DNA of 64,000 nucleotides from Candidatus Omnitrophota bacterium (lineage in GTDB: Bacteria > Omnitrophota > Gorgyraeia > Gygaellales > JAQTUX01). Location of the stretch: the NCBI GenBank assembly GCA_028707125.1, contig JAQTUX010000001.1, positions 205,639-269,638 of the forward strand, written 5' to 3'. Below are positions 8,274 to 57,027 of the stretch, piece by piece. The position numbers and the translations under genes are program-made. Each line of letters opens with the position of its first letter. Within the stretch, counting starts at the first letter, position 1. Below the pieces are notes generated by a model. The model had not been told where the DNA came from, did no database searches, and was given only the letters and a program-made list of their open reading frames with translations.

Positions 8274-10235
8274 ATGGATAAAGACAGGATAGATTTTTCG
8301 CATAAAGGCGCGATCGCCCTTGTCGGCAATCCCAATGTCGGCAAGTCGGTTATTTTTAATCTTTTTACCGGCGAATACGTGACCGTGTCCAATTATCCGG
8401 GGACGACCGTGGAGGTGGCGCGGGGTATTTTCAGGTTTGACAGATCTTACTCCGTCCTTGACACCCCGGGCACAAACAGCCTTATTCCCTCATCGGAGGA
8501 CGAGAGGGTAACGCGCGATATACTGTACAAGGAGAACGTAAAGGCGGTTGTGCAGATAATTGACGCCAAGAACCTTAAGCGCTCGCTGTTTTTAACCCTG
8601 CAGCTGATCGAGTCCGGGCTGCCGCTTGTCCTCGCCTTAAATATGATGGATGAAGCGGAAGAAAGAAGGGTCAAGATAGATGCAAAGGGCCTTTCGCTGA
8701 TATTGGGCGTTGATGTCATACCCACGATTGCCATTGAAAAAACAGGCATAAATAACTTGATCCACGCTGTGCCGAAGGCCAGGGTTTCTTCACATGAAGT
8801 CGGATACCCCGAGTTTATAGAACAGGCAATAGAGAGGATATCGCGGCTGATTCCTCAAGGCGGGGTTTCAAAACGGCTTACCGGCATTATGCTTTTAAGC
8901 AGGGATGCCGCGTTCTTGCGTGATATCTTAGGCGGCGTAGATGCTGAAAATATCCGGCAGATCGAACAAGAGGCCGCGGCCCTGGAGAGCCGCTTATCAG
9001 GCAGGATGAGCCGGGTTATTGACCACAGCAAGTTTGCCCATATAGACGCGATTATCAGGAAGGTCGTTAAAGAGGAGATTTTGAAGTCAAAATTATTTCT
9101 GGAACGGCTGGGGAACTGGATGGTTTCGCCTTTGTGGGGCGGGATTTTTGCCTTGTTCATATTGTTTTTACTTTATAAGTTCGTAGGTGAATTCAGCGCG
9201 GGAACAGCGGTTGATTTTTTGGAAGAAAAGGCCTTCGGAGAATATTTTAACCCCTGGATAACGGCTGTATTGGGCAGGTTCATCCCATACGCGTTTGTAA
9301 GAGATATGTTCATAGGCGAATACGGCGTTATAACCATGGCGTTGACTTATTCTCTGGCGATAATCCTTCCCATTGTCTCCGCGTTTTTTCTTGCCTTCGG
9401 CATATTGGAGGACACAGGGTACCTGCCGCGGCTGTCTGTGGTTATGGATAAGGTGTTCAGGCGGCTTGGACTGCACGGAAAGGCGGTCCTGCCTATGGTG
9501 CTGGGGCTCGGTTGCGGCACAATGGCAGTGCTTACCACCAGGATCCTTGAGACAAAAAAGGAACGGCTTATCGCCACCGTGCTTCTGGCCCTGGCCATTC
9601 CCTGCTCAGCGCAGTTAGGCGTAATACTGGGTATGCTCGCGGCTGTTTCAAGGGGCGCGATGCTTATCTGGGTGGCAGTGATCGCGTTTATTCTTCTGGT
9701 GATCGGCTTCGTCATGGATAAGGCCATCCCGGGCAAGCGTTCGGATTTCATTATGGAACTGCCGCCTCTGCGCCTGCCCAAAATCAGCAATATTTTGACA
9801 AAATTGCTGGCTAGATTACAATGGTATCTTAAGGAGGCGGTCCCTCTGTTTATGATCGGGACATTGATGTTGTTTATATTTGATAAGCTGGGAGTGCTTG
9901 TCAGAATAGAGGGCTTTTTTTCTCCGGTTGTTCAGGGTTTCCTCGGGCTGCCTGCTAAGGCGACCGAGTCCTTTATAATAGGTTTTCTAAGGCGCGATTA
10001 CGGCGCTGCCGGGCTCTATGCCCTGCAGAAGGACGGCGCCCTGACCAACCTTCAGATTCTGGTAAGCATAATCGTGATCACATTGTTTGTGCCCTGCATC
10101 GCGCAGTTTTTCGTGGCAGTAAAAGAAAGGGGGCTGAAGGCGGGATTGGCCATATTCTTCTTCGTGATGCTTGTCGCCGTATTGACAGGAGGGGCGGTGA
10201 ATTTTATTATTAGTTATTTAGGGGTGAGGATATGA
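8274..10235 (+). CDS. feoB: Ferrous iron transporter B
   Basis: N-terminal G-domain GNPNVGKS...DTPG, followed by a polytopic membrane domain with FeoB gate motifs. Confidence 0.9.
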   Translation: MDKDRIDFSHKGAIALVGNPNVGKSVIFNLFTGEYVTVSNYPGTTVEVARGIFRFDRSYSVLDTPGTNSLIPSSEDERVTRDILYKENVKAVVQIIDAKNLKRSLFLTLQLIESGLPLVLALNMMDEAEERRVKIDAKGLSLILGVDVIPTIAIEKTGINNLIHAVPKARVSSHEVGYPEFIEQAIERISRLIPQGGVSKRLTGIMLLSRDAAFLRDILGGVDAENIRQIEQEAAALESRLSGRMSRVIDHSKFAHIDAIIRKVVKEEILKSKLFLERLGNWMVSPLWGGIFALFILFLLYKFVGEFSAGTAVDFLEEKAFGEYFNPWITAVLGRFIPYAFVRDMFIGEYGVITMALTYSLAIILPIVSAFFLAFGILEDTGYLPRLSVVMDKVFRRLGLHGKAVLPMVLGLGCGTMAVLTTRILETKKERLIATVLLALAIPCSAQLGVILGMLAAVSRGAMLIWVAVIAFILLVIGFVMDKAIPGKRSDFIMELPPLRLPKISNILTKLLARLQWYLKEAVPLFMIGTLMLFIFDKLGVLVRIEGFFSPVVQGFLGLPAKATESFIIGFLRRDYGAAGLYALQKDGALTNLQILVSIIVITLFVPCIAQFFVAVKERGLKAGLAIFFFVMLVAVLTGGAVNFIISYLGVRI

Positions 10236-13736: not shown

Positions 13737-14663
13737 ATGGCTCGTATCTTTGAAGATATCACCAGGACAGTAGGCAATACGCCGCTCGTGAGATTGAAAT
13801 CTATCGCTAATGGCTGTGTTGCCGATATCGTCGCTAAACTGGAATTTTTCAATCCCCTGTCCAGCGTGAAGGACCGCATAGGCGTTGCCATGGTCGAAGA
13901 CGCGGAAAAACGAGGCCTGCTTAAAAAGGGCTCAGTTATAGTGGAGCCCACCAGCGGCAATACAGGCGTCGCCCTTGCCTTTGTTGCCGCGGCAAAAGGA
14001 TATAAGCTTATATTGACCATGCCGGATACGATGAGCATAGAGCGCAGGCAGCTGCTGAAGATCTTTGGCGCCGAACTTGTGCTTACCGACGGGACGCTGG
14101 GAATGAAGGGGGCCGTGGAAAAGGCGGAAGAGCTCACGAGGAATATCCCCGGCGCGTTTATGCCTCAACAATTTGAGAATCCCGCGAATCCGGAGATACA
14201 TCGTAAGGCCACGGCTGAGGAGATATGGAAGGACACCGACGGAAAAGCGGATATCCTGGTTTCGGGCGTAGGCACGGGCGGCACGATCACAGGCATCGCG
14301 GAAGCGATAAAAAAGCGCAAGGGCTCTTTTAAGGCGATAGCGGTTGAGCCGAAGGATTCGCCCGTGCTTTCAGGGGGTAAGCCCGGCGCGCATAAGATCC
14401 AGGGCATCGGCGCGGGGTTCCTGCCGCAGGTCCTTAACATGGATACGATTGACGAGGTGATCAAGGTTTCAAATGAGGACGCGGGGGTCTTTGCCAGGCG
14501 GCTGGCGAAAGAAGAAGGCATACTGGCAGGTATTTCAGCCGGGGCAGCGGTCTGTGCCGCTGTTAATATAGGTAAAAGAGAGGAAAATAAGGGAAAGCTC
14601 ATAGTCGTTATAGTGCCTGATACGGGAGAGCGGTATCTAAGCACCTGGTTGTTTCAGGAATAA
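13737..14663 (+). CDS. cysK: Cysteine synthase A (O-acetylserine sulfhydrylase)
   Basis: PLP-binding region [26 protein letters not shown] and the glycine loop [10 protein letters not shown]. Confidence 0.85.
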
Positions 14664-19517: not shown

Positions 19518-19571
19518 ATGAGTTGCGGGAGCTGCGGGCCAAGGAAAAAGAAGAAGAAAAAGAAGAAGTAG
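19518..19571 (+). CDS. Candidate 17-codon small ORF MSCGSCGPRKKKKKKKK
   Basis: GGAGGTG lies 5 nt upstream of the ATG. A CxxC pair is followed by eight consecutive AAG/AAA lysine codons and TAG. A perfect 16-bp hairpin begins 16 nt downstream. Not verifiable from sequence alone. Confidence 0.2.
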   Translation: MSCGSCGPRKKKKKKKK

Positions 19572-19586
19572 CGGAGAAGGACGTTT

Positions 19587-19651
19587 CGTCATTGTGAGCC
19601 CCGCCCTTTTGGGTAGTATACAGAGCGCTAACTAACCAAAAGGGCGGGGCT
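19587..19651 (+). other. Perfect 16-bp stem hairpin (AGCCCCGCCCTTTTGG...CCAAAAGGGCGGGGCT) without a following T-tract
   Basis: Direct reading. The loop is 22 nt. The stem ends at 19651, 9 nt before the ATG of the next gene (19660). Confidence 0.6.
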
Positions 19652-30573: not shown

Positions 30574-30602
30574 TTGACAGAAGCCCATTTATAGGGTATA
30601 CT
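30574..30602 (+). promoter_or_regulatory. Sigma-70-like promoter preceding the riboswitch candidate
   Basis: TTGACA at 30574-30579, a 17-nt spacer, then TATACT at 30597-30602. Confidence 0.5.
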
Positions 30603-30635
30603 TATACTGACAATTAGGGTAGTGTAGGTTGAGGT

Positions 30636-30722
30636 TTTTCAGCCGATAAAGGCAAACCCGCAGGAATGCGGGGGCGCAAAGTTAGCGGCCCGGAACGGGC
30701 GGCGCGACTACCGAAGATGGAA
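30636..30722 (+). ncRNA. c-di-GMP-I (GEMM) riboswitch aptamer candidate
   Basis: The sequence aaaGGCAAACCcgcaGGAAtgcgGGGGCGCAAAGttagcggcccgGAAcgggcggcgcgacUACCGAAGAUGG matches the GEMM-I core segment by segment. The segments are GGCAAACC, a tetraloop hairpin, GGGRCGCAAAGC, a second tetraloop hairpin, and a closing ACCGAnGG. Confidence 0.6.
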
Positions 30723-30736
30723 AACTTTTTTATTTC

Positions 30737-30772
30737 CCGTATTCGGCATTATGGCTGGATACGGGATTTTTT
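30737..30772 (+). terminator. Intrinsic-terminator-like hairpin (putative riboswitch expression platform)
   Basis: CCCGTAT...ATACGGG 7-bp stem followed by ATTTTTTA. It lies 17 nt upstream of the ATG at 30789. Confidence 0.45.
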
Positions 30773-30788
30773 ATAGGAGGGCAAGAAA

Positions 30789-32471
30789 ATGAAGATCGGA
30801 TCTGATCGGAAAAAATATACCGCGTGTATTATTGCGTTTATTTTTGCATGCGAGGCAGTTTTTTCACCCAGTGTATCTGCCGCGGAAGACGAGGCGGACA
30901 ACATCTGGGAGCCGGCGTATGCCTATAATTGCCAGATCACCTGGCGCAGGGATAGCTGCACAGGCAAGGGATATATGCCTAACCGCGTTACTACCTATGC
31001 CCGGGACGAAGAAACAGGCAGCCGCTATCTTGATAGTTACCGCAGGGTTGATTACAGCTGCGACAGGGAACCGGGGCTGGGTTCAATACTGGTGATCAAC
31101 GGCTACAGCAGGTATTTCAGATTTCCCGACGGCTCGCGCCACACAGAATCATGGGACCAGTCCGGGTGGAGAGAGGCGCACCGTTATGCGGATGGCAGCA
31201 ACGACATCCGCAGCGGGGATGAGCCGCTGGACTGGATCGAGGTATATGCCGAGGATTACCGGGCGCAGACATTCAAAGACCACGTTTATTTCATGGCCAA
31301 AATAATTGCCGAGCAGAACCTGCTCGCCTGTTGTAACACTCCGGGATTCTCTGAACTCTGCCGTAAGGCGGAGGATGTGTTTGACAGGGCAGGGGCTGAT
31401 AGCGTAAAAAGGGCGCTGCACTTACGGGGCGACCTCTTTGAAACAAGGGCCGTATATCCCTGGCTCTGTTATAATTCTGATCCGGCCCGTCCCAATATCA
31501 ACTATACTAAACTCTTTGATTCTGAGGAGAGAATGTACAGGACGCTGGCTGCTCTGGAGTTGCTTTCGGCGGCCCCTGTTGTGGGCGGGGCAGCGGAAAC
31601 AATGGCAGGGCTTATTGAGGCAAGGCAGGGCAATTATAATCGGCTGTTCACGGCTCCGGCGGCATTCATATTCGGCGGCCTGGCTGTCAGGGGAGTATTC
31701 GGCGCCGCGGCGAGGATAGCGGCAATAGCAAGGAATCTGGGCATAATGAAGGCGATAGTCAACAATGTGTTCAGGCCCGTCAAACATTTTGCGGGGAGGT
31801 ATATCGTGTCCCCCATGATCAGAAATGCCGCGCATCTAAGATGGGGCGTTGAATCACTGCGGCAATATTGCTTCAGGATAGAAAACAGAGGGGTCGACGC
31901 GTTCGCGTTGGACAAGATCAATGAGATGAATGAGATCGTAAACGGCCTGGAGGAAGGCATAGCCCGTAAAGTTAACGATATGATGCTGCCTTTCTTTAAA
32001 TTCCTGGATAAGAACGGGCACGAGGTTGTGGATGAGGTCATAGGCGAAAATTCAAGCGCGTCAAGGATCTGGGAGCGGTTTGGAAGGGACGCGGATAATG
32101 TGTTTGATGAGGCAAGGGGCGCCTTTGAGAGGTTCACCGATCTCCTCGCGGCAAACAGCGACGATACGGCAACTGCCGCGCGGATGCTGAACTCCGCGGA
32201 GAGAAGCATCATAGATGAGATGGAAGAGCTGTTTGACGCCATAGACATTGATGATTACGAAAGATTCACGGAGCAGGTAGGCGAGTTAAAAGGGTTGCTT
32301 GACAGGCAGATGCCCATACTGCAGGCCTTAAACAGCGCGGCGACATGGAGCCAGGCGAACAGGTATTTAAGCGCGGGCCGGGCCGAAGCGGCAATGGCTG
32401 AATATATGAGGAATCTCAGGGGGTTCTATATACAACTGGACAACCTGTACAAGGACATTGCAAGCCATTAG
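30789..32471 (+). CDS. Secreted protein of unknown function (signal peptide, possible lipoprotein)
   Basis: The N-terminus MKIGSDRKKYTACIIAFIFACEAVFSPSVSAAED is signal-like. There are no recognisable catalytic motifs. The protein is Cys/Trp/Arg-rich at the N-terminus and a helical Ala-rich region follows. Confidence 0.45.
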   Translation: MKIGSDRKKYTACIIAFIFACEAVFSPSVSAAEDEADNIWEPAYAYNCQITWRRDSCTGKGYMPNRVTTYARDEETGSRYLDSYRRVDYSCDREPGLGSILVINGYSRYFRFPDGSRHTESWDQSGWREAHRYADGSNDIRSGDEPLDWIEVYAEDYRAQTFKDHVYFMAKIIAEQNLLACCNTPGFSELCRKAEDVFDRAGADSVKRALHLRGDLFETRAVYPWLCYNSDPARPNINYTKLFDSEERMYRTLAALELLSAAPVVGGAAETMAGLIEARQGNYNRLFTAPAAFIFGGLAVRGVFGAAARIAAIARNLGIMKAIVNNVFRPVKHFAGRYIVSPMIRNAAHLRWGVESLRQYCFRIENRGVDAFALDKINEMNEIVNGLEEGIARKVNDMMLPFFKFLDKNGHEVVDEVIGENSSASRIWERFGRDADNVFDEARGAFERFTDLLAANSDDTATAARMLNSAERSIIDEMEELFDAIDIDDYERFTEQVGELKGLLDRQMPILQALNSAATWSQANRYLSAGRAEAAMAEYMRNLRGFYIQLDNLYKDIASH

Positions 32472-32510
32472 TTTTTAAAGGCGTAGCCGTGTAATCTCAG
32501 GAGGTGCGTC

Positions 32511-32927
32511 ATGATACATAGTAAGATATTGGAAAGGCTGAAGTTCCTTTCATTCGTGCGCAAGGCGCTGGCGACAGTGGGCATGAGCTGTTTTGCCGAC
32601 GGCAGGTATATCAGGGGGCAGATGATAATCAAGATGAAGGACGGCTGCCTGCTTCGCAGGGAAGACGAGGTCAAATTCAGCTCAGAGCGGCTCAACAGCA
32701 TAAGCAAGAGGTACGCGCTGATAAGTTTAGACCGGCTTTTCGCGGAAGACGCGCAGGGGCTGCTAAGGGGTATCTACCGCCTTAACTTTCAGAGGAAAGA
32801 CCTGGATATGGTCAAGGCGGCGGCAGAGTATGAGAGGGACGAGACCTGTGTATTTGCCGCGCCGAATTTTGTGATCGCGCCGACAGCGCCGGTACCGGCC
32901 ACGGTAGAAAGAAGGAGGGGGCAATGA
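32511..32927 (+). CDS. Small protein of unknown function
   Basis: A GGAGGTG RBS lies 5 nt upstream. The C-terminal segment CVFAAPNFVIAP weakly resembles the end of subtilase propeptides. This is speculative. Confidence 0.35.
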   Translation: MIHSKILERLKFLSFVRKALATVGMSCFADGRYIRGQMIIKMKDGCLLRREDEVKFSSERLNSISKRYALISLDRLFAEDAQGLLRGIYRLNFQRKDLDMVKAAAEYERDETCVFAAPNFVIAPTAPVPATVERRRGQ

Positions 32928-33059
32928 GACGATTACTTAAACCGAAACTTATGTGCAGGTACGCCAGGATAAGCGCGCACAGGGCGAGGAGGAAGATGTC
33001 TGATTTTCTGGGGGATAATTTCCCGGCGATACCTCATATTGGAAAGGGAGAGGCGCGCC

Positions 33060-33383
33060 ATGGAGAAGCGTGAATTCGTACGGCTGAATGTGGAGCTGGA
33101 AGTGGCTTACCGCGTAATCGGGTCAATGAGGGACCTTGCCGGCACGCGTACCGAGGATGCCTCTGAAGGCGGCATACGCGTTATGTTCCCGGAGAAGGTC
33201 CAGCCGGATACGCGCGTGGAGATCAGCATAAAGATCCCCGGAGAAGAGAAGCCGGTTTTCGCGGTCGGCAAAGTGGTATGGGTCAGGCCCGATATATTTG
33301 GCGGCGTGTATATGACCGGCATCCAGTTCGTCCACATAAAGCAGGCCGACAGGCAGCGCCTGTATAAATACGTCGTATTATAA
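33060..33383 (+). CDS. PilZ-domain protein (c-di-GMP receptor-like)
   Basis: An RRxxxR-like N-terminal motif (RRAMEKREFVR) and a D/NxSxGG-like motif (EDASEGGIRV) are spaced as in PilZ domains. The start is taken at the ATG at 33060 behind a GGGAGAGG RBS, because the track start 33039 is TTG. Confidence 0.6.
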   Translation: MEKREFVRLNVELEVAYRVIGSMRDLAGTRTEDASEGGIRVMFPEKVQPDTRVEISIKIPGEEKPVFAVGKVVWVRPDIFGGVYMTGIQFVHIKQADRQRLYKYVVL

Positions 33384-33386
33384 ACT

Positions 33387-33412
33387 TTACATTTGCTTTG
33401 TTTGAGATTATA
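33387..33412 (+). promoter_or_regulatory. Sigma-70-like promoter for the gspE-led operon
   Basis: TTTACA, a 17-nt spacer, then a perfect TATAAT -10. It lies 10 nt upstream of the gspE ATG region. Confidence 0.4.
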
Positions 33413-33422
33413 ATTTATTGCG

Positions 33423-35141
33423 ATGGGAGATAAATCCGCGGTTTTGACGATAGGGCAGCTGTTATTAAAAGAAGGCGCGGTTACCCCTGAGCAGTTGGAC
33501 AGGGCATTGGCCCAGCAGAAAGAGGCAGGCGGGTATCTCTGCGCCAATCTTATAAAACTGGGCTTTGTCTCTGAAGAGCAGATCTTTCCCGTGTTGGCCA
33601 GACAGCTCAAGGTGCCTTACATCCGCCTCAAAGACGCCATTATCCCCCCGGAAGTGATCAAGACCGTGCCGGCGAAGTTTGCTACGCATTACCGGCTTAT
33701 ACCCGTTAAACTTGAGGGCGGCACGCTGTCGCTTGCCATGGCCGACCCTCTGGACGTGCATACCTTAGATGATATGCGGCTTTTTCTGGGCTATGATATT
33801 AAGCCCATGCTTGCCGGCGATACCGATATAGTGGAGGCGATAAGCAGGTATTACGGGGTTGGGGCGGACACACTTGAAGAGATAGTCGCCGGCAGCGAGA
33901 AGATATTCGGCAGGATAGAGAAAGAGGGAAGGGCTGCCGAGGATGTTGAGGTGCAGGCAGAGGACGCCTCAATAGTCAAGTTCGTAAACCAGATACTGGC
34001 TCAGGCCGTTTCCGACAGGGCCACCGATATCCACCTTGAGCCCTATGAGAACGAACTGAAGGTGCGCTTCAGGATAGACGGCATGCTCTATGACGTCAAT
34101 ATCCCCGAGACCATAAGATATTTTCACTCCGCGATCATTTCCCGCATAAAGATCATGGCGCATCTGAACATCGCCGAGCACCGGCTTCCGCAGGACGGCA
34201 GGATAAAGATAAGGGTCAAAGACATAGAGCTTGACCTGCGCGTCTCCATCGTGCCTTCATCCTTCGGGGAGGCGGTGGTCATAAGGATACTCAGCGGCAA
34301 AGAGGTCATGTTCCAGCTGGACAGCCTCGGCTTAAGCAAGGAAGAGTCGGAACTCTTAAGCGGCATAATCAAGAGGCCGCACGGCATAATACTTGTCACC
34401 GGCCCCACGGGAAGCGGAAAGACAACCACCCTTTATGCCTTCCTCTCCGAGCTGAATAAAAAAGAGACCAAGATCATTACGATCGAGGACCCCATAGAAT
34501 ATCAGATAAGCGGCATAATCCAAATGCAGGTCCATCCTAAGATCGGCTTTGATTTTGCCAACGGCTTGAGGTCCATACTGCGCCACGACCCGGATATAAT
34601 AATGGTGGGAGAGATACGCGACTATGAGACCGCCGAGATCGCCATACGTTCCTCCCTGACCGGCCACCTGGTTTTTTCCACGCTTCATACCAATGATGCC
34701 GCGGGCGCGGTAACGCGGCTTCTGGATATGGAGCTGGAGCCGTTCCTGGTCGCCTCTTCCATTGAATGCCTTATTGCCCAGCGCCTGGTCCGCCTTATCT
34801 GCCCGCATTGTAAAAAAGAAGCGCGCCTTTCCGAAGAGGCGGCGCAGATATTGAAGAAAGACATAGATGTTCCCAGGTCGGTATTTTATGCCGGTTCAGG
34901 ATGCGAGAAGTGCAAACACACCGGCTACCAGGGCAGGACCGCTATATATGAGATCCTGGTGATGGATAACGAGGTCAGGGACCTGATATTAAAGCGTTCA
35001 TCCAGCCAGCAGATAAAGCAGGCGGCGATCTCCAAAGGTATGACCACTCTTCGCCAGGCAGGCCTCAGAAAGGCGACGCAGGGGATCACCACCATAGAAG
35101 AGGTGCTGCGCGTAACGCAGAAAGAAGAGATGTTCATTTAG
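33423..35141 (+). CDS. gspE: Type II secretion / type IV pilus assembly ATPase (GspE/PilB family)
   Basis: N-terminal GSPII_E_N-like domain, Walker A GPTGSGKTTT, Asp and His boxes, and the tetra-Cys motif CPHC...CEKC. Confidence 0.9.
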   Translation: MGDKSAVLTIGQLLLKEGAVTPEQLDRALAQQKEAGGYLCANLIKLGFVSEEQIFPVLARQLKVPYIRLKDAIIPPEVIKTVPAKFATHYRLIPVKLEGGTLSLAMADPLDVHTLDDMRLFLGYDIKPMLAGDTDIVEAISRYYGVGADTLEEIVAGSEKIFGRIEKEGRAAEDVEVQAEDASIVKFVNQILAQAVSDRATDIHLEPYENELKVRFRIDGMLYDVNIPETIRYFHSAIISRIKIMAHLNIAEHRLPQDGRIKIRVKDIELDLRVSIVPSSFGEAVVIRILSGKEVMFQLDSLGLSKEESELLSGIIKRPHGIILVTGPTGSGKTTTLYAFLSELNKKETKIITIEDPIEYQISGIIQMQVHPKIGFDFANGLRSILRHDPDIIMVGEIRDYETAEIAIRSSLTGHLVFSTLHTNDAAGAVTRLLDMELEPFLVASSIECLIAQRLVRLICPHCKKEARLSEEAAQILKKDIDVPRSVFYAGSGCEKCKHTGYQGRTAIYEILVMDNEVRDLILKRSSSQQIKQAAISKGMTTLRQAGLRKATQGITTIEEVLRVTQKEEMFI

Positions 35142-45102: not shown

Positions 45103-45729
45103 ATGCTGAGAACTATCAGAGTAGTGTATGAGGACGCTCATCTATTGGTCGTGGAAAAGCCGGCGGGGATGCTGACTGTGGCAACGGTCAAGAATGAACG
45201 CGGGACGCTGGTCAATATTTTAAGGGACGAGGGCTACAGGGTGTATCCCTGCCACCGGCTGGACAGGGATACTTCGGGCTTGATCATGTTCGCCAAAGAC
45301 AAAAATACGCTGGATAAGATGCGGCAGCAGTTCCGGGAGCACAACGTGAGAAAGGCCTACAAGGCAATAGTGCAGGGCTCCCTGCAGAGAAAAGGCGGCA
45401 CGATAAGTTACGATATCATTGAAAAGGGCGTAAAAAAACCCGCCCGCACCGACTATGTGGTGCTTGAATCCAATCCCTTGTTCACGCTGGCAGAGGTGCG
45501 CCCCTTGACAGGCAGGACAAATCAGATAAGGATACACTTCAAACAGATAGGCCATCCGCTGGTAGGCGAGAGAAAATTTTTTCTGGCAAAGAGATCCGGA
45601 GTTAAATTCAGGAGGGCCGCCTTGCATGCCGAACGCCTGGATTTCAGGCATCCTTACACCGGAGAAAAGATACGGCTGAGAAGCGCGCTGCCTAAAGACA
45701 TGGAAAACTTCTTGAGAGGAACAAAATGA
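45103..45729 (+). CDS. RluA-family pseudouridine synthase
   Basis: HRLDRDTSGLIMFAK catalytic-Asp motif. The start is taken at the ATG at 45103, downstream of the repeat. Confidence 0.8.
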   Translation: MLRTIRVVYEDAHLLVVEKPAGMLTVATVKNERGTLVNILRDEGYRVYPCHRLDRDTSGLIMFAKDKNTLDKMRQQFREHNVRKAYKAIVQGSLQRKGGTISYDIIEKGVKKPARTDYVVLESNPLFTLAEVRPLTGRTNQIRIHFKQIGHPLVGERKFFLAKRSGVKFRRAALHAERLDFRHPYTGEKIRLRSALPKDMENFLRGTK

Positions 45730-48700
45730 AAAAGACAAACCAATGTAAATACTACCTGAATAACAGCGATGAATTCGTGATCGAAAATTATAATCAGGCG
45801 CGGCCGTTTTCCTCGTTCTTTCCCGGGATCGCGGGGCTCTTCGGCATACCTATGTGGGTGTTTTACGCCAACCGCGGCCAGTGCATTTCCAGCTTCGGCG
45901 TGCGGGACAAGGACAACCCCATACTTGAATTTTATCCCGCGAACAAGGCCTACCAGCATACGGGCCGGCTGGGCTTCCGCACATTTATAAAGATAAAGAA
46001 AAACGGCAAAGAGGCCTTCTACGAGCCGTTCCAGCGGGCATCCGGCAACCGCATGCGCGTACGCCCTTACGAATTGTCGCTGGAAGAGTCCGATCCCGCG
46101 TCGGGCCTGCGCGTCAAGGTGGAATATTTTACCTTGCCCAACGAAAATTTCGCGGCGCTGGCAAGGATGGTTGAGATAACCAACGAGTCATCCAGGGTAA
46201 TTCCCATCCAGGTATTGGACGGCCTGCCGCAGGTCATCCCCTTCGGCATAAATAATTTTTTCCTGAAGGAAATGCACCGCACCATAGAGTCATGGATGAG
46301 GGTGGAGAACCTGGAGAATAACGCCGCGTTCCTGCGGCTGGCGGTTGACCCGCGCGACAGGTCTGAAGTCGTGCATCTTGAGGAGGGCAATTTCTTCTTA
46401 GGGTTTTCCGACGAGGGAGGGCTGCTCGCCCCCATAGTTGACCCCAGGGCGGTATTCGGCCAACAAGGCGACTTTTCTTCCCCCCGGATTTATCTTCAAG
46501 GGGATTTCAGGCATCCGGCGTTTCAGCTGACGCAGAGCATAACGCCCTGCGCCTTCGTATTCAAGAAGGCCGCGCTTGCAGCCGGCAAGGGCATCAGGTT
46601 GTATTCGCTGTTCGGCCATATGAGGAATATTGAAATACTGCGGCAGAAGGCGGGGGCCATCAGCCGCGGCAGTTATTTCAAGCGCAAACGGGAAGAGAAC
46701 AAATCCCTGATCGAGTCGCTGGAGGCGAATTGTTTTACCGCCAGCAGCGATAAGGCGTTTGACCTTTATTGCCGGCAGACGTTCCTGGACAACTGCCTGA
46801 GGGGCGGCTTCCCCCACAGTTTTGAATATGACGGCAATTCAACTATCTATGTCTATTCCCGCAAACACGGAGACCCTGAGCGCGACTATAACAGGTTCGC
46901 GCTTAACCCCACGTACCTGTCCGAAGGCAACGGTAATTTCCGCGACGTAAACCAGAACAGGAGAAGCGACTGCCTGTTCAATCCCCGCCTGGGCGACCTG
47001 AATCTTAAGACGTTTTTTAACCTGCAGCAGTTAGACGGCTATAACCCGCTGGTGATAAAAGAGAACATCTTTATCCTGGCCGAAGCAAAGAAGTCCGAAG
47101 AGGCATTGAAGAGGTTCTTTAAGGAGGGCGATATCGGCTGTGTCCTGCCGCTTCTGGAGGGGCAGTTTAACATAGGAAAATTTTTAACGCAGATTGACGA
47201 CAAGGGTATCAGGATAAAGGGCGCGCCGGAGGCGTTGATCCATTTTCTCTTCCTTAATTCATCAAGGGTCCAGGATGCCGAGTTCGGCGAGGGATACTGG
47301 TCGGACCATTGGCAGTATAATATTGACCTGCTGGAGAACTACCTCTCCGTCTTTCCCGAGCGGCTCAAATATATACTGCTTGAAGACAGGGGTTTCAGCT
47401 TTTACGACACCGCCGAGAGCGTCCAGCCGCGCGGCGCCAGATACGTTGTTAAGGACGGTAAGGTAAGGCAGTTCCACTGCCTGGCCAGGCACGGCGATAA
47501 GAAAAAGATGCTCGCGGAGCGCCAGGCAGAGCCGCATAAAGTTAGGGTTGATTTTGGCCGGGGCGAGGTCTACCATACCACTCTTTTAGTAAAACTCTTA
47601 ACGCTTATCCTGAATAAACTCGCCACGCTGGATCCTTTCGGCGTAGGCATAGAGATGGAGGCGGATAAACCCAACTGGTTTGACGCGTTGAACGGCCTGC
47701 CTGCCCTGCTTGGTTCATCCTCCTGCGAGACATTTGAGTTAAAGCGGCTGATCGTTCTTTTATCCGGCCTGCTGAAAGGCCTGCCGCGAGATACGATAGC
47801 AGGGATCCCCGAAGAATTGAAGTCGTTTATGGATGACCTGACGGCCGCGATAGAGAGCTATCTGAACTCCGGCGTAAAAACAAGGGATTTTGACTATTGG
47901 GACAGAAGCAACGGTATTAAGGAAGCATTCAGGAAGAGGACGTTCTTTGGCGTAAGCGGTAAGGAAGTTGAGGTGGGGATAAAAGAGGTGGCCTCTTTTC
48001 TGGAGAGCGCGTCCAGGCGGATAGGATCATCGCTGAGCAGGGGGTTCGACAAGAAGAGAGGCGTATTTTTCAGTTATTTTATCAATGAGGTAAGCCGATA
48101 TAAGATCGAGGGAACAGCTGTCAAGCCGCTGGAATTTAAACAGAGCGCCTTGCCGCTTTTCCTGGAGGCAAACGTCCACGCCCTCAAGGTGTGCGCGGAT
48201 AGAGGCAAGGCAGAGGCGTTGTACCGCAATATAAAAAAGAGCCCGCTTTACGACAGGAAGCTGAAAATGTATAAGGTCTGCGCTTCTTTGAAAGGACAGC
48301 CGGAAGAATTAGGCAGGTGCGTGATCTTTACGCCCGGATGGCTGGAGAACGAATCGATCTGGCTGCATATGGAATACAAATATCTTCTGGAGCTGCTTAA
48401 GGCAGGGCTGTATGAGGAATATTTCCGCGAATTACATAATACGCTGGTTTGTTTTCAGAGGCCGGAGGTTTATTCAAGGAGCATCCTTGAGAATTCTTCA
48501 TTCATTGTATCCAGCGCCTTTCCCGACCAGTCAATGCACGGGGCGGGGTTTGTGGCGCGGCTGTCCGGCTCAACCGCGGAACTCATTAATATATGGCTGG
48601 TCATGTGCGCGGGCAAGGCGCCGTTTTTCCTGGGCAAGGATGGGAAGCTGTCCCTTAGATTCGAGCCGGCGCTTGAGGGCGGATTCTTCTTGGACAGGGC

Positions 48701-48974
48701 GGCGGAGTTTGAGCTGCCTTCCGGCAAGTCAGCGCTGAAACTGAAATTGTCCAGAGGCGACTTCGCGTTCAGGTTCCTGAATTCAGCGCTGGTCGTATAT
48801 CATAATCCGCGGAGAAAGGACACCTTCGGCGGCAAAGGGGCCCGCGTAAAAGAGATCAAGTTCAGGGATAAAGACGGCGCGGCGCACAGCATAGAGGACG
48901 GATATATTCCCGCGCCTTTTGCGGGGCAGGTGCGGGACGGGTTGATCGATAGGATAGATATTATTTTAAGGTAG
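45726..48974 (+). CDS. Large (1082 aa) GH94/GT36-like six-hairpin glycoside phosphorylase/hydrolase family protein, divergent
   Basis: GNFRDVNQNRRSD and ADKPNWFDALNGLP parallel the RDxxQD and DWNDGLD motifs in the 686..3349 protein. The substrate is unknown. Confidence 0.4.
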   Translation: MKKTNQCKYYLNNSDEFVIENYNQARPFSSFFPGIAGLFGIPMWVFYANRGQCISSFGVRDKDNPILEFYPANKAYQHTGRLGFRTFIKIKKNGKEAFYEPFQRASGNRMRVRPYELSLEESDPASGLRVKVEYFTLPNENFAALARMVEITNESSRVIPIQVLDGLPQVIPFGINNFFLKEMHRTIESWMRVENLENNAAFLRLAVDPRDRSEVVHLEEGNFFLGFSDEGGLLAPIVDPRAVFGQQGDFSSPRIYLQGDFRHPAFQLTQSITPCAFVFKKAALAAGKGIRLYSLFGHMRNIEILRQKAGAISRGSYFKRKREENKSLIESLEANCFTASSDKAFDLYCRQTFLDNCLRGGFPHSFEYDGNSTIYVYSRKHGDPERDYNRFALNPTYLSEGNGNFRDVNQNRRSDCLFNPRLGDLNLKTFFNLQQLDGYNPLVIKENIFILAEAKKSEEALKRFFKEGDIGCVLPLLEGQFNIGKFLTQIDDKGIRIKGAPEALIHFLFLNSSRVQDAEFGEGYWSDHWQYNIDLLENYLSVFPERLKYILLEDRGFSFYDTAESVQPRGARYVVKDGKVRQFHCLARHGDKKKMLAERQAEPHKVRVDFGRGEVYHTTLLVKLLTLILNKLATLDPFGVGIEMEADKPNWFDALNGLPALLGSSSCETFELKRLIVLLSGLLKGLPRDTIAGIPEELKSFMDDLTAAIESYLNSGVKTRDFDYWDRSNGIKEAFRKRTFFGVSGKEVEVGIKEVASFLESASRRIGSSLSRGFDKKRGVFFSYFINEVSRYKIEGTAVKPLEFKQSALPLFLEANVHALKVCADRGKAEALYRNIKKSPLYDRKLKMYKVCASLKGQPEELGRCVIFTPGWLENESIWLHMEYKYLLELLKAGLYEEYFRELHNTLVCFQRPEVYSRSILENSSFIVSSAFPDQSMHGAGFVARLSGSTAELINIWLVMCAGKAPFFLGKDGKLSLRFEPALEGGFFLDRAAEFELPSGKSALKLKLSRGDFAFRFLNSALVVYHNPRRKDTFGGKGARVKEIKFRDKDGAAHSIEDGYIPAPFAGQVRDGLIDRIDIILR

Positions 48975-50706: not shown

Positions 50707-52194
50707 ATGCGGAATATCAAAAGGGTCCTGGAGGGTTTTTCTTTGCGCCCCAGAGAGGTAGCCGGCGTAGACCTTGATGCCCATAAGATAATTGTCTGCG
50801 AGGTAGAAAAGAGGGGCCAGGAATTAACGCTTAAACATGTTTACATAAAGGAATTCCCCCAGGCCGGCGCCGCGGCGGATAATCTGCGGGGATTCCTCAA
50901 AGAGAATAAATTCGCTGAAGCCAAATACAGCTGCGTGGGGGCGATAAGCGCGGAGGAGTCATTCTTCAAGGGCTTCGCCACCAAAACCAATATCTTCAAA
51001 GACAAGGGCAACATCCCCTCATTTCTTTCCCGCCAGCCCCTGCCCGTTAACCTCAATGACTGTTACTGGGATTATCTGCTTACGGGAAAGAACCTTAATC
51101 TTGTAGCCGCGAGGAAAGAGATCGTTGACGCGCAGTTTAACGCCTTCAAGGAAGCCGGCGTGCAGTGCGCCTTTATCACGGCCGTGCCCTTCGCCCTGTA
51201 TAACGTCTTTACCTTTAACTACCCCGACAAGAAGAATTTCTGCATCCTGCACGTCAGATGGCAGTGCAGCAACCTGTGTATCTTTGAAGACGGCAGGTTC
51301 TGGATCCATACCATTTCAATAGGAAAGGATAAGCTCGCGGCAGGCGGCAGGATCGCGGAGGATGTGATCAGCGAGTTCGCGCAGGAGATAAAGCGGCTGC
51401 TTAATTCCAACTATCTCCAGATGGGTTCCTCGCACAAGCCGCTTGAGGAGATATTCCTTTCCGGAGAGCCCATCGCCGAAGACCTTCAGCCGTTGAGTTC
51501 GTCTTTAGGGATCAACGTGGCCTATCTTGATCCGCTGAAGAAGATCTCCCGCGCTGTTTCCGTTGATAAGCCGTCGCAGCTTTCCTTAAGCATCGGTTTA
51601 TGCGCGTCTTTCCTCAGCCCTTCCGCCTTCAGGTTGAACCTGTTGAAGGAAAAGCAGCGTTCCCTGGACGATACCAGGCATTTTGATACCGCCAGGAAGG
51701 CGTTCAGCGCCTTTATGCTTGCCTTGCTGGCGTTATTGGTCTTTTTGAATTTCAGGATGGGCAAGGCCGCGGGCCTGAAGGATAAGGAACTGGAGCGGTA
51801 CAAGTTCATATCGGACAAGGTCGTGCCCGGCTATAAAACACTCCTGGAGGAAGAGAAGTTCGTAAGCGAAAGATTGCAGTATCTGGAAACCCGGGCTAAA
51901 CTGCACAGCCTCTGGCTCAAGATGCTGCGGGATATATCGGTAAGCAAGGCAGACGATATGCGCGTTACTCTTTTAGACGCGCGCAACATTGACGGCCTGC
52001 TGGTCGTTATGCTGGGGGGCAGGACCGCCGACTACAGCGATATAAACGATTTCCTCAGCAGCCTGAGGCAAAATGAGTACGTTTCGGGGGTTAAGATAGT
52101 TTCTTCCGCTCAGGGCAGCGGCAAAGAAAGCGGCGTTGAATTCAAGGTCCGCCTTGACATAGGGCTTGAGAAAGGCGCCGCCGCTCAAGAATAA
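50707..52194 (+). CDS. PilM-PilN-like fused pilus assembly protein
   Basis: An N-terminal actin-like region, a central transmembrane helix (AFSAFMLALLALLVFLNF) and a periplasmic C-terminal domain. The architecture parallels 39269..40648. Confidence 0.4.
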   Translation: MRNIKRVLEGFSLRPREVAGVDLDAHKIIVCEVEKRGQELTLKHVYIKEFPQAGAAADNLRGFLKENKFAEAKYSCVGAISAEESFFKGFATKTNIFKDKGNIPSFLSRQPLPVNLNDCYWDYLLTGKNLNLVAARKEIVDAQFNAFKEAGVQCAFITAVPFALYNVFTFNYPDKKNFCILHVRWQCSNLCIFEDGRFWIHTISIGKDKLAAGGRIAEDVISEFAQEIKRLLNSNYLQMGSSHKPLEEIFLSGEPIAEDLQPLSSSLGINVAYLDPLKKISRAVSVDKPSQLSLSIGLCASFLSPSAFRLNLLKEKQRSLDDTRHFDTARKAFSAFMLALLALLVFLNFRMGKAAGLKDKELERYKFISDKVVPGYKTLLEEEKFVSERLQYLETRAKLHSLWLKMLRDISVSKADDMRVTLLDARNIDGLLVVMLGGRTADYSDINDFLSSLRQNEYVSGVKIVSSAQGSGKESGVEFKVRLDIGLEKGAAAQE

Positions 52195-52197
52195 TAT

Positions 52198-53328
52198 ATG
52201 GCGATACATTCAGATCTGAAAGAGGCGTCCCGGAGATGGGCGCGGTTCTTTAAGGAAGGCGTTAAAGACGAAAGGATCAAAAAGCATCTTGCCTTCAGCA
52301 TGCTCCTGATCTTCCTGGCAATATTTTTGATTTTACGCTTGTTTTTTTTATCGTATAAGATTAAAATGATAGCAGAGGACAAGGCGGCGGTAGCCGCTTC
52401 TATCTCCAAGGATTACCGTGACATAGACGAAGCGGCGCTGGCGGATATGCAGAAAAAAACAGGCCTGATGTGGCAGCGCCTTTTGGGGCTGACGGAAATG
52501 TTTGATCCGGCCCAGGAAGGCCGCAAAGAAGGATATGAGGCAAGCTTGTATTTTGTGGAACAGTTACAAAGCATAGAGAAGTCGCTTAAGCTTAAGGCGG
52601 AGAATAAAAAACTTCTTTTCCAGGGGCTTGGCTTCAACGAAGACCTGCCTTCCGAAAAGGATTCTGTATTTTACCTCAAACAGATGGACGCGTTGAGGTC
52701 GGCTGTAGAGCTTGGCCTTGACTCCAATATAAGTTTCGGCCCGGTAATGCCTCAGGGCATAGACCAGAAGGATGAAAGTTTGGGTTTTTTGCGGCTTCTG
52801 GCAAGGGCGGAATTTACGGCAGCGCCTTCGGACCTGGTAGAGTATATAAATGAGATCAGAGATACGGCGCCTCTATTGGTCATAACCTCGCTGAAGGCAG
52901 AGGAGAAGGACGGCCGGATGCAGGCCTCTATGCTGTTTGAGCGGCTGCACTGCGGTCAGGATTGGCGGGACAGGAAACTGGAGAAGCCGCTTTCCAGGGC
53001 GGAGGCCGTAGAGAAAGCCGACGATTACCTTAAGATATTGAGGGGGGTTAACCCCTTTTTCCAGGACCAGAAAAAAGAAGAGCCGGCAGCGCCGGCAGGC
53101 GCCGCGGGCGGCGCGGAGTTAAAAAAGGAGAGGCTGATTTTCAAGGGTTCGGCGGTTTTCCGGGACCGCCCCGTGGCAGTCATAGAGGATACCTTAAGCA
53201 AGGAAACATTTTTTATAGCGGAAGGCCAGTCCATAGCCACATTCAAATTGCTCAGTTTTTCCAGCGACAGCGCGACACTTACCGCTATAGACAGCGGCAA
53301 GGAGATCGTGCTGCAGAGAGGCAAATAA
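52198..53328 (+). CDS. PilO-PilP-like fused pilus assembly protein
   Basis: An N-terminal transmembrane helix, a coiled coil and a C-terminal PilP-like beta segment (RPVAVIEDTLSKETFFIAEGQSI...TLTAIDSGKEIVLQ). Confidence 0.35.
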   Translation: MAIHSDLKEASRRWARFFKEGVKDERIKKHLAFSMLLIFLAIFLILRLFFLSYKIKMIAEDKAAVAASISKDYRDIDEAALADMQKKTGLMWQRLLGLTEMFDPAQEGRKEGYEASLYFVEQLQSIEKSLKLKAENKKLLFQGLGFNEDLPSEKDSVFYLKQMDALRSAVELGLDSNISFGPVMPQGIDQKDESLGFLRLLARAEFTAAPSDLVEYINEIRDTAPLLVITSLKAEEKDGRMQASMLFERLHCGQDWRDRKLEKPLSRAEAVEKADDYLKILRGVNPFFQDQKKEEPAAPAGAAGGAELKKERLIFKGSAVFRDRPVAVIEDTLSKETFFIAEGQSIATFKLLSFSSDSATLTAIDSGKEIVLQRGK

Positions 53329-56300
53329 TGGGTTTCAGGCGCATATCGATACTTGTATTATTCTGGCTCTGCTTATTCGGAGCGCTTAATTGCCGGGGCA
53401 TCTATGCCGGGGGCGACAAAGAGGCATTGGCCGGCTATAAACAGGCAAAAAGGTTGATAGCCGGAAAGCATTACCAGGAGGCGTTGACCCTTCTTGATGA
53501 TCTGCTGAAACGTTTTCCTCAAAGCGCGCATATACGCCAGCTGAAGGATTCCACTATAGAGCGGCTTGCCGTTGCCGAGGAAAAGGCGGAATACCGCAGG
53601 CGCCTGCTTGAGCAGAGGCAGCGGGAAAAGCAGCGCGTCGCGGAGAAGCCGGCCCGGGCATCAAAGGCGTCAGAGCAAAACGCTGAGGAATTTACCGGGC
53701 AGAAGAAACAGACAAAGCAGCAGATCGCGGAAGACAGGCGCAGGAGGAAAGAAGAGGTCCTCAGAGAAAGGGCGCTTGTAAATGAAGAGCAGGCCGCCAG
53801 AAAGAAGGATCTGTCAGAGCAGAAGAGCCGGGAAAAAGAAGAGCGGATTCTGCAGGCGCGCCGCGAGAAAGAGGAGAAGAGGGCGGATGCCCTGGCGAAA
53901 AAAGAGCAGGCGCGCATGAAAAATGAGCGCCGCAGGGATGCCCGGCTTGAGGAAGAAAATCGCAGGAAAATGATAGAGGCGCGCGAACAGGAGGCAAGGC
54001 AGCGGCGGGAGGCCGCTGAAGCAGGATCGCGCCCGGCTCCGGAGAAAAAGAGCGCGCAGCCCCAGGAGGCCGAAGGGCAGGCGCCGGCCCGGAGCGCTAT
54101 AAGCGAAAGCCCTGAGGTTCCCAGCAAGAAGTTGGAGATCATCAAACAGGATTTTTCAGATTACCGGCAGACAGCGCGTTTTATAGAAGAGGAAGAAAGA
54201 AAGGCGTATAAGGAAAAGTTATTAAGGGAGCGGGAGGAACTGAGAAAAAAACTTGAGTTGGAAAAAAAGCGGCTTGAGGAAAGAAGGGCGAAAGACAGCC
54301 GCTCCGCAGAGCAGGGCGCGGCTTCAAAGCCGGCGGAAAAGAAGCAGGAGGCGAAGAGGCCGGAAAAAGAAAATCCCGGAAATAACAGGGCCGCCCTGCG
54401 CAAGGCGATGATAGAAAAGAAACGGCTCCTGATGCTGGAGGCGCAGCTTCGCCGCCAGGATAAGCTTGAGGAGCGGAAGAAAAAGATAGAAGAGAAAAAG
54501 AGGCGCATAGAGGAGCGTTACGGCTCTTCCCTTGAGAAAAAGGGAAAATTGCGGGAGATCAAAAAATCAGTTGCCGCGGGGAAGCTGGAAGAGGCAGAGG
54601 CCCTGCTTAATGAGTTGACCACCAAATACCCCGAGGATATACGGCTTTTAAAATATGCCGATAAACTGGACAGGATCATAGAAAAGCGCCGGCAGAGAAA
54701 GGGGCCAAACAAGCCCGGCGGCGCCGCGCGGAAAGCGGCTATAGCGGTCGCCAAGGAGATGATAACAGCTAATAAGCAAGAGGCGGCCGAGCCTGAACCC
54801 GAAGCCAGCCCGGAGTTAAAGGAAAAGAAGATAAAAGAAGAGATCCTCCAGCAGAAGCTCAAAGAGCGGGCCGCCAGGCGCCGGCAGAAAAAGGAAAGAA
54901 AGCCGTCCGTCCTGTCCGAGCGCAGGGAAAAGTCCCTTAAGAAGACGGCGGTGCTTAAGGAAAGAAACGCGATCTCCGGCCAGATCAGAAAATATATCGG
55001 TAGCGCCGACTTCAGCAAGGCGAAAGAGGCGCTGGATTCCTTCAGGTCAAAATTCCCCGAGGACACAAGGATCTCCTCGCTTGATGATCTGCTTAAGAAA
55101 AGGATCAGGGCTGCCGGGGAAAAAGACAAACGCCGCGACGCGGCCCTGGAGAGGCGTGAAGAGCTGGCAAGAAAAAAGAAAGAACACGCGCTCGCCCGCC
55201 AGGAAAAGATTGCCAGGGAAGAGAAAAACGTCATTGTCAGGGAACAGGTAGAATCAAAGAAGCAGGAGGCGCGGGAGAGCATAACCAGGCGCGGTAAGGA
55301 TAAGCAGCTCAAAAAGCACAAGGAAGACAGGGAGAAGATACGCAAGATCAACCAGCTTTATAAAGAGGCAAGGCAGTTATTCGCCAGGGAGATGTATGAA
55401 GAGGCGATAGAGAAATTTGAGAAGGTGGTCGAGCTTGAAGGCAACCCCAGGATATATTACACCCCGTCCGCCAGGAAATTTATTGATAAGGCAAAGGACT
55501 TGTTAAAAGAGCAGCATATGGAGAATATTTCCGCGGAGGCGGGCCTTATGGAAAAGGAGATGATCAATAAGGTAATTGAGAAAGGGATGCCGCCGTATAT
55601 TGAGCCGCAGAAAAAGATCGAAGAGATAGAGAGGGTCCCCCTGGTCAAGGTGCCGATTATCAGGCAGCGGCTGCAGAAGAGGGTCACGCTTGATTTTGAC
55701 AAGGTATCGCTGAAATCGGTGATGGATTTTCTTTCCGACGAAACGCAGGTGAATATAATGCTCTCAAAGAAGGCGCTGGAGCAGGACTTCAGCGTGACCG
55801 CGAAGCTGGACAAGATCAAGGCGGAGGAGGCGGTAAAATATATCCTCAAAGGGCTGGGCCTGAAGCACAGGGTAGACGACCAGATCGTCTGGATCGCCGT
55901 TGAGGAAGAGATCGACGACGAGAACCTTGAGACGAGGGTATACTCTTTCAACAAGGGCAGCGGCCTGTTCACCGAATTTACCACTACCACTGCCGGAGAG
56001 GTGGGGCTGGGAGGCACCTCCGAGATAACCAAGATAACCACGATAGAAGATGTGCTGAAAGAGGCAGTGCCCTGGCCCGCCGAGGCAAAACTTGTTTTTG
56101 ATAAGAGGACGGGCACCATAATCGCCACGAATACCCCTTCCAACCTGCAGAAAGTAGAGGACATACTTTATAATATAGACGTGGTCCCTTATCAGGTCCT
56201 CATCGAGGCGCGTTTCCTTGAGGTGACCATTAATGATATTGAAGAACTGGGCCTGGAGTGGACATTGACCGGGGACTTTCCTTCCAAGAAGGCGGGGGCG

Positions 56301-57026: not shown

Positions 57027-57027
57027 T

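Follow-up and report, generated by a model that had tools for sequence, protein, structure and literature searches.

The 64,000-nucleotide (nt) stretch of Candidatus Omnitrophota DNA analysed here (the window) holds two adjacent genes, for orphan proteins of 560 and 138 amino acids (aa), which lie first behind an aptamer of the cyclic di-GMP (c-di-GMP) class I type and an intrinsic terminator. Both open reading frames (ORFs) are real genes under purifying selection, and the linkage of riboswitch and genes recurs in related loci. The explanation that we favour, with a little more confidence than doubt, is a lineage-restricted, c-di-GMP-gated unit composed of an exported surface or effector protein, possibly handled by the adjoining type II secretion system (T2SS), together with its small partner, a micro-ORF and a PilZ protein.

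Expression of the unit would begin at a sigma-70-type promoter, from which a leader RNA carrying the class I aptamer with its canonical pocket, and then the terminator, would be made. Polymerases escaping the terminator would transcribe the 560-aa and 138-aa genes and most likely continue through the 49-aa micro-ORF and PilZ. Binding of c-di-GMP would lock helix P1 and free the 5' arm of the terminator, which would stop transcription and confine expression to low c-di-GMP. The 560-aa protein would cross via Sec and is most plausibly a cell-surface or extracellular protein, an adhesin or effector handled by the adjacent T2SS; its beta-rich N-domain may vary between near-identical strains, with the long-helix C-domain conserved. 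The 138-aa protein may be an accessory factor of prodomain-like fold for whichever large exported protein adjoins.

c-di-GMP riboswitches mark genes that are switched with lifestyle. The uncultured Omnitrophota are suspected of being ultra-small predators or epibionts, and for them riboswitches are among the few handles on cell-surface proteins. The locus ties an orphan, probably exported protein, a small partner and PilZ to the c-di-GMP signal at the head of a T2SS cluster, and it provides concrete candidates for structural and biochemical study. Its reach is limited: in about 15 billion proteins the two families are known from four loci, with no function assignable from sequence or models.

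Leader RNA and its linkage to the two genes

The elements of the leader and the two genes behind it are as follows.

30574-30602, + strand: sigma-70-like promoter TTGACA-17-TATACT, 11/12 consensus positions
30634-30728, + strand: c-di-GMP class I (GEMM-I type, Rfam clan CL00126) aptamer with extended P1; Rfam core 30642-30716
30711-30746, + strand: possible antiterminator, in which the P1 3' strand CCGAAGAUGGAAA would pair with the terminator 5' arm UUUCCCGUAUUCGG
30735-30772, + strand: intrinsic terminator from the terminator scan, 13-bp stem (30735-30766) followed by T6, -21.2 kcal/mol
30789-32471, + strand: 560-aa ORF, ATG start, Shine-Dalgarno sequence GGAGGG at 30776-30781; hypothetical protein PHR44_01215
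32511-32927, + strand: 138-aa ORF, ATG start, Shine-Dalgarno sequence GGAGGTG at 32500-32506; hypothetical protein PHR44_01220

Three further loci carry relatives of these genes.

L001: the contig begins inside the leader, so that the terminator alone is visible
L002 (JGI metagenome): nadA, promoter, aptamer, 134-aa homologue, 551-aa homologue, 99-aa protein, VWA protein, micro-ORF, PilZ, GspE/F/G
L003: aptamer, 141-aa homologue, 58-aa ORF, unrelated 978-aa signal-peptide protein with bacterial TSP3 repeats

Both ORFs stand where an earlier note, made by eye, had placed them, each with its own Shine-Dalgarno sequence, and a Candidatus Omnitrophica metagenome-assembled genome (MAG) encodes hypothetical proteins of exactly the same sequence. 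Upstream of the riboswitch lie housekeeping genes, namely a biotin synthesis block, mnmA and nadA, and the promoter begins 10 nt past the nadA stop codon. The counterpart in L002, TTGAAA-17-TATACT at 9704-9732, occupies the same position. The terminator lies 19 nt past the Rfam aptamer core and ends 16 nt before the ATG of the 560-aa gene; a terminator hairpin with a U-run is also found 3' of the aptamer in L001, L002 and L003.

Among Rfam models the aptamer is best matched by RF03167, the c-di-GMP-I-GGC variant (60.2 bits, E = 1e-11, gathering score 59). The same model gives 59.4 bits in L002 (9807-9881) and 29.5 bits in L003 (13-129). The P1 helix was extended beyond the Rfam core in this analysis, and all 29 pairs of the resulting structure hold in the window, L002 and L003, nine of them with changes on both sides. 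None of 500 column shuffles reaches the observed covariation, slid controls yield at most two such pairs, and the three-helix junction of P1, P1a and P1b is thereby backed by covariation. A covariance model of our own, R2, scores the window aptamer at 117 bits and sets the aptamers of the window, L002 and L003 (above 100 bits) apart from about 95 other GEMM-type aptamers drawn from genomes and metagenomes (77 bits or less). We also note that positions 47-88 of L003 hold a 42-nt insertion with two extra hairpins between P1a and the junction, and that the remaining aptamer is nearly that of the window.

The binding pocket, read from the cmscan alignment, consists of AAAG-G-GC, CGC-A-AA and A-C-CGAA. 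Its nucleotides are numbered here as G20, A47 and C92, which we take to be the numbering of the Vc2 structure. The A47-equivalent, position 37 of the RF03167 model, is A in the window, L002 and L003, and likewise in seven further loci labelled RF03167 by Rfam, in contrast to the G of the RF03167 consensus (CGC-G-AA). The 'GGC' variant was reportedly named by Weinberg et al. in 2017 for a G that replaces A47, and we presume this substitution to be the naming feature of RF03167. Because an A sits at this position, the pocket appears to be the canonical G20/A47/C92 pocket and the ligand is most probably c-di-GMP. What the window does share with RF03167 is a short P1b/P2 hairpin lacking the tetraloop receptor: a GGAA tetraloop is present, without the CUAAG/UAUG receptor of other Omnitrophota aptamers. 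RF03167 thus appears to be the best model on account of the short P1b hairpin and not of the binding pocket. The type 1 architecture, in which a GNRA tetraloop docks into a P1b receptor, is absent; it is non-obligatory for the class.

The earlier note had made its proposal depend on conservation of the riboswitch-gene linkage, and this linkage holds in L002 and L003, two metagenomic loci that are independent of each other. Its description of the two genes as the direct cargo of the riboswitch can be kept in part: they are the first genes behind a genuine aptamer and terminator, but the invariant partner of the aptamer is the small protein alone. In both L002 and L003 the gene of the small protein comes first behind the aptamer, and the large neighbour differs. 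Because L003 pairs its homologue with an unrelated 978-aa protein, the small protein, and not the 560-aa protein, is the invariant companion of this riboswitch subgroup. The possibility that the 978-aa protein is a distant relative of the 560-aa protein was rejected (BLASTP E = 0.037 over 78 residues, hhalign probability 0.3%). Cargo of the sister loci is signal-peptide-bearing and adhesin-like, as illustrated by the VWA protein of L002 and the TSP3-repeat protein of L003. None of the 240 loci fetched with a DNA pattern of the aptamer 5' half encodes a relative of either protein, and the two protein families are restricted to a narrow Omnitrophota clade.

The 560-aa protein and its small partner

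Three segments can be distinguished in the 560-aa protein.

30789-30881, + strand: predicted Sec-type signal peptide, aa 1-31, cleavage after VSA, read by eye from the alignment
30882-31529, + strand: predicted beta-rich, Cys/Trp-containing N-domain, aa 32-247; strands predicted at 44-143 with low confidence
31530-32468, + strand: Ala-rich, predicted long-helix C-domain, aa 248-560; helices predicted at 285-558

This agrees with the signal peptide, Cys/Trp-rich N-terminal region and Ala-rich helical domain of the earlier description, with the qualification that the Cys and Trp enrichment is modest (3.2% and 2.7% of residues 32-250); Ala makes up 14.8% of residues 251-560. The n, h and c regions of a signal peptide are found in all three family members, with predicted sites VSA|A in the window, AWA|K in P0002 of L001 and AVA|D in L002, and hydrophobicity peaks at 1.85 over residues 11-29. 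On this basis the 560-aa protein is probably exported. Six cysteines (C48, C57, C91, C182, C191 and C227) are conserved in all three members and could form disulfides. The C-domain includes a Gly/Ala-rich, moderately hydrophobic stretch around aa 260-315, with a peak of 1.63 at residue 286.

P0002 is 78% identical to the 560-aa protein, and the L002 homologue aligns over its full length with 29% identity (BLASTP E = 1e-64). An exhaustive HMMER search of 1.84 billion cluster representatives, which stand for about 15 billion proteins, returned the query's own cluster and one other, P0006, a protein of 551 aa that, judging by length and score, is taken as the L002 protein. The 138-aa protein is represented by three clusters; its homologues P0004 and P0005 share 58% and 50% identity with it, and 57 residues are invariant across the family. 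A word-indexed search with a three-sequence profile of the 560-aa protein gave nothing new, and scans of genome and metagenome collections with the 138-aa alignment gave nothing more. The earlier statement that neither protein shows an assignable motif is borne out by Pfam, NCBIfam and PDB sequence searches, in which nothing exceeded threshold for either protein. A match to UDP-arabinopyranose mutase (E = 0.0057, 80 helical residues) was rejected as compositional.

Comparison with L001 reveals that the 560-aa gene is a mosaic. Residues 1-247 are 58% identical at the amino acid level and about 60% at the nucleotide level, with pN (nonsynonymous) 0.26 and pS (synonymous) 0.82, a value at which synonymous sites are saturated; residues 248-560 are 98% identical in amino acids, with dN (nonsynonymous) 0.010, dS (synonymous) 0.058 and a dN/dS of about 0.17. 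Within the gene, nucleotide identity jumps sharply, from about 60% to about 99% (window 30782-31541 against L001 64-877), and the 2.2 kb of DNA past the junction is about 99% identical. This pattern suggests allelic exchange of the N-domain between strains. It may also be a two-strain assembly chimera in the L001 Logan contig, which is short and k-mer-assembled and carries a 41-nt identical stretch at the mosaic junction. A diversity-generating retroelement behind the divergence is excluded because the substitution spectrum is not adenine-biased; synonymous sites are saturated as well.

The similarity of the 138-aa protein to a subtilase propeptide is fainter than first described, and it lies elsewhere. 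The only Pfam family that matches is the Fervidolysin_NPro-like family PF22148, which is hit by three of the four small-protein members with a best E of 0.0035, in every case below threshold (13.5 bits for the 138-aa protein, 18.1 for P0004 and none for P0005, cut-off 21). The match covers residues 30-66, with about 25 profile positions aligned, and not the C-terminus as the earlier note had it, and there is no subtilase nearby. GRYIxGxMxIK and VFAAPNF are motifs that resemble strands of a prodomain. A PDB profile search with the 138-aa protein gave no prodomain match at E <= 10. Structural comparison of its AlphaFold2 model (predicted local distance difference test, pLDDT, 40) by Foldseek returned nothing below E = 0.9, with an order of secondary structure compatible with beta-alpha-beta-beta-alpha-beta. 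Likeness to subtilase (S8) prodomains, which have the I9 inhibitor fold, therefore amounts to the sub-threshold PF22148 match, and the difference from them is that the 138-aa gene is stand-alone, unfused to an S8 peptidase and without one as a partner.

Foldseek on AlphaFold models had been put forward earlier as a route to the fold of both proteins, but no fold was assigned. AlphaFold2 was run with alignments of two and three sequences; because the alignments are only that deep the models are poor, and at pLDDT 40 the matches are meaningless.

Extent of the unit, switch polarity and alternative readings

Downstream of the 138-aa gene the following features are found.

32924-33073, + strand: basic micro-ORF of 49 aa (MRRLLKPK..RY.RI..FLGDNFP), start overlapping the 138-aa stop (ATGA), end overlapping the PilZ start
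33060-33383, + strand: PilZ-domain protein (Pfam PilZ 54.9 bits against 22.5, E = 1.2e-14), ATG at 33060 set by the L002 alignment
33386-33414, + strand: promoter-like element TTTACA-17-TATAAT before gspE, 11/12 consensus positions in the window and in L002
33423-44970, + strand: T2SS cluster; Pfam identifies GspE (with MshEN domain), F, G, minor pseudopilins, K, an L-like PilM/PilN fusion, M, an ExeA-like AAA protein, a C/B-like protein and the secretin

Pfam thus bears out a PilZ gene and a complete T2SS downstream on the same strand, as had been read from the sequence by eye. The micro-ORF has no Pfam match, and a 52-aa micro-ORF that is 45% identical precedes PilZ at 14197-14355 of L002. 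Between micro-ORF and PilZ, L002 has a perfect inverted repeat of 14 bp (CCACCTCGGAGGTG TA CACCTCCGAGGTGG, 14383-14417); it has no T-run, and the window lacks it. The terminator scan of 32927-33060 found no terminator. Because the frames overlap or abut with no terminator between them, transcription is likely to continue into the micro-ORF and PilZ, and the cargo of the riboswitch probably includes both. The PilZ protein begins MEKREFVRLNVE and its L002 orthologue MERRKFVRLNVELEV; in both, the motif at residues 6-10 (RLNVE in the window) is RxxxE and not RxxxR, and c-di-GMP binding by the PilZ protein may be altered.

The 39-nt spacer between PilZ and gspE (window 33384-33422, L002 14761-14799) is nearly identical between the two loci, and the -10 hexamer of its promoter-like element ends 9 nt before the gspE ATG, which suggests a leaderless or near-leaderless T2SS transcript. 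We infer that the riboswitch unit runs through PilZ and that the T2SS genes also have a promoter of their own. The 560-aa protein, whose gene lies 950 nt upstream of gspE, possibly is T2SS cargo; the signal peptide agrees with this, and the linkage is suggestive without being a defining feature of T2SS substrates. In the MshEN domain of GspE (33423-33620, GspE residues 9-61), the two 24-residue motifs for c-di-GMP are preserved at most of their hydrophobic positions. Thr and Tyr replace the leading Arg of the two repeats, Cys replaces Gly in the second, and the domain fails the relaxed motif (PMC5013675). Binding of c-di-GMP by this ATPase is doubtful from its sequence.

A P1 3' strand that pairs with the 5' arm of the terminator is a classical OFF design. 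When the transcript is about 120 nt long, this possible antiterminator is its minimum-free-energy structure, and L003 has an equivalent pairing despite a different terminator sequence. The terminator itself does not overlap the aptamer, and P1 and terminator coexist in the minimum-free-energy fold. Class I riboswitches of C. difficile are uniformly OFF, including those of a putative adhesin and the ZmpI protease (PMC6200980). From the leader sequence we lean slightly towards OFF polarity. The earlier idea of an adhesin, matrix or effector protein induced by c-di-GMP is not established: the proteins have no assigned fold or function, and the leader is at least as compatible with OFF, that is expression at low c-di-GMP, as with ON.

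Several observations weigh against the c-di-GMP-gated export unit as outlined. With -8.4 kcal/mol the antiterminator is weak beside the terminator (-21.2 kcal/mol), and the pairing is harder to discern in L002, where it shrinks to a CCGAA/UUCGG core. Among known switches, Vc1 is an ON switch (PMC4744006), and B. thuringiensis Bc1 is a class I riboswitch with separate downstream terminators that the ligand can unfold (PMC11218506). The evidence for T2SS dependence consists solely of adjacency and the signal peptide, and with the conserved promoter-like element before gspE the T2SS need not obey the riboswitch. Both AlphaFold models stand at pLDDT 40 with no fold or family, and Foldseek against PDB with the 560-aa model returned nothing below E = 0.05. 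The ORFs of the window and of 243 fetched loci were free of S8 catalytic motifs. The N-terminus of the 138-aa protein is at best a weak signal peptide (19-residue hydrophobicity 1.1). The family is tiny, with the window and L001-L003 as its four loci in all, and arguments from conservation rest on few sequences.

An ON switch would turn the proposal around, with the 560-aa protein as an adhesin or matrix protein that is produced when c-di-GMP is high and leaves through a T2SS co-activated by way of PilZ and MshEN. We regard this as a possible reading, though not a probable one. The adhesin-type domains of the sister cargo (VWA in L002, TSP3 repeats in L003) and the encoding of PilZ and an MshEN domain alongside fit it, as do the class I ON switch Vc1 before gbpA, which codes for a secreted colonisation factor (PMC4744006), and the Bc1 terminators that unfold upon ligand binding (PMC11218506). 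In the window, however, the terminator is separate from the aptamer and coexists with P1, and the sole alternative pairing found competes with P1, as an OFF design would. Co-activation is made harder by the MshEN substitutions, namely the lost first Arg of both repeats and Gly of the second, and the 560-aa protein itself has no adhesin domain.

In both the window and L002 the two genes head the same T2SS cluster, and this conserved position could also mean that the 560-aa protein is an accessory part of the machine in periplasm or outer membrane, for example a factor associated with secretin or pseudopilus, and that the 138-aa protein is its assembly partner. A signal peptide followed by long helices would suit such a role, and Omnitrophota T2SS-like loci hold many poorly conserved extra subunits (bioRxiv 10.1101/2023.11.21.568195). 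We consider it unlikely, since the small protein of L003 pairs with the unrelated 978-aa TSP3-repeat protein and the 560-aa family is far rarer than T2SS. For a structural subunit, a riboswitch of its own next to a gspE with its own promoter would be unexpected, as would a divergent N-domain allele between near-identical strains, although the mosaic may be an assembly chimera.

Returning to the c-di-GMP-gated export unit, a more far-reaching form of it would be an undescribed 'cargo slot' at the head of the T2SS, in which aptamer and small adaptor or chaperone are combined with an exchangeable exported protein under c-di-GMP gating and N-terminal heads are swapped by recombination for target specificity. 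We hold this to be speculative and improbable. If true, the cell would choose its surface or attack protein according to c-di-GMP, and the small, prodomain-like protein would serve universally in delivering structurally unrelated cargo to the machine.

Strongly divergent N-domain alleles on a C-domain that is 98% identical would also be expected of a membrane-active toxin directed against prey or host, with an exchangeable receptor-binding N-head, a hydrophobic Gly/Ala-rich hairpin in the helical C-domain and the 138-aa protein as chaperone or inhibitor. The hydrophobic stretch at 286-304 (Kyte-Doolittle 1.63) does lie between long predicted helices, and a predatory or parasitic life has been discussed for Omnitrophota (bioRxiv 10.1101/2023.11.21.568195). 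This reading is very improbable: the stretch holds several Arg and Glu, the L002 homologue is not hydrophobic there, and no fold match was obtained. The large partner is exchanged outright, yet the small protein keeps 50-60% identity, which speaks against a specific immunity or inhibitor role. Chance frames or decaying genes, finally, would account for the lack of a database family and the very few homologues, but are effectively refuted by the full-length homology in L002, the 57 invariant residues of the small protein and dN well below dS, with Shine-Dalgarno sequences, signal peptide and conserved gene order pointing the same way.

Comparison with known systems and neighbouring sequences

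The unit belongs to a known kind, in which a c-di-GMP riboswitch precedes genes of secreted or surface proteins, and its closest counterparts are Vc1-gbpA and the switches of C. difficile. GbpA leaves the Vibrio cholerae cell via the T2SS. As in the window, the gene of a secreted protein with a signal peptide carries a GEMM-I aptamer in its 5' leader (PMC4744006). Apart from the ON polarity of Vc1, the difference is that gbpA lies away from the T2SS genes and that GbpA has known chitin-binding domains, whereas the window combines an orphan protein with a small, probably co-transcribed partner gene in a unit that abuts PilZ and T2SS. In C. difficile, Cdi-1-12 (zmpI), Cdi-1-2 (putative adhesin) and Cdi-1-3 (flgB) are likewise class I leaders of secreted or surface genes, with OFF polarity (PMC6200980). 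This organism is in contrast a Gram-positive Firmicute without T2SS, the domains of its cargo are recognisable, and the OFF polarity of the window is a prediction.

Bc1 of the Bacillus cereus group, a class I riboswitch with a long expression platform, resembles the window in having stand-alone rho-independent terminators apart from the aptamer (PMC11218506), and L003 likewise has two hairpins behind its aptamer. It differs in controlling a chemotaxis-protein gene, in terminators that unfold with ligand and in barely responding in vivo. T2SS-like loci with pilZ are recurrent in Omnitrophota, with a proposed role in attachment or predation (West-Roberts et al., bioRxiv 10.1101/2023.11.21.568195). 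Like the window, these loci combine a GspD/E/F machine that exceeds 10 genes with large secreted proteins and a pilZ close by. The genes described there are giant and riboswitches are unmentioned, whereas the neighbours in the window are a 560-aa orphan and a small protein under an aptamer.

The guanine-cytosine (GC) content is 0.50-0.55 throughout, and a foreign origin of the cassette was dropped since there is no anomaly at this position. No paralogues of the two proteins occur within the window. The window contains two T2SS/T4P-like (T4P, type IV pilus) systems: 45726-48974 and 50707-58707 encode a 1082-aa protein without Pfam match and a second secretin-containing machine, which has a PilN-like protein, a 1232-aa TPR-secretin and a second MshEN-type ATPase.

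The Shine-Dalgarno and start context of the 138-aa gene had been noted as nearly identical to that of a tiny ORF at 19518. GGAGGTGCGTNATG is present twice in the window, at 19507 and 32500, and its GGAGGTG is the anti-Shine-Dalgarno complement, of which the + strand of the window has nine occurrences. Beyond GGAGGTG the two contexts share only three spacer bases, which is chance level, and the likeness carries no information; no relation between the tiny ORF and the 138-aa gene was found apart from the Shine-Dalgarno sequence. The tiny ORF itself (19518-19571, MSCGSCGPRKKKKKKKK) has a strong Shine-Dalgarno sequence and lies 3' of a P-type ATPase gene; a GC-rich hairpin comes next, at about 19598-19650.

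Class I aptamers were also seen in other settings. In L034, L025, L062, L008, L058, L081, L131, L133, L143, L153, L156, L187 and others, many stand directly before GH1-like glycosidase genes (FLWGAATSAYQVEG motif). These loci are mostly from Omnitrophota MAGs, with L081 from a Planctomycetales MAG and several on unassigned metagenome contigs. Others of these aptamers precede genes for Cys-rich proteins of ~100 aa (YGDLSxxCxxC), RsmE-like genes and genes for very large secreted proteins.

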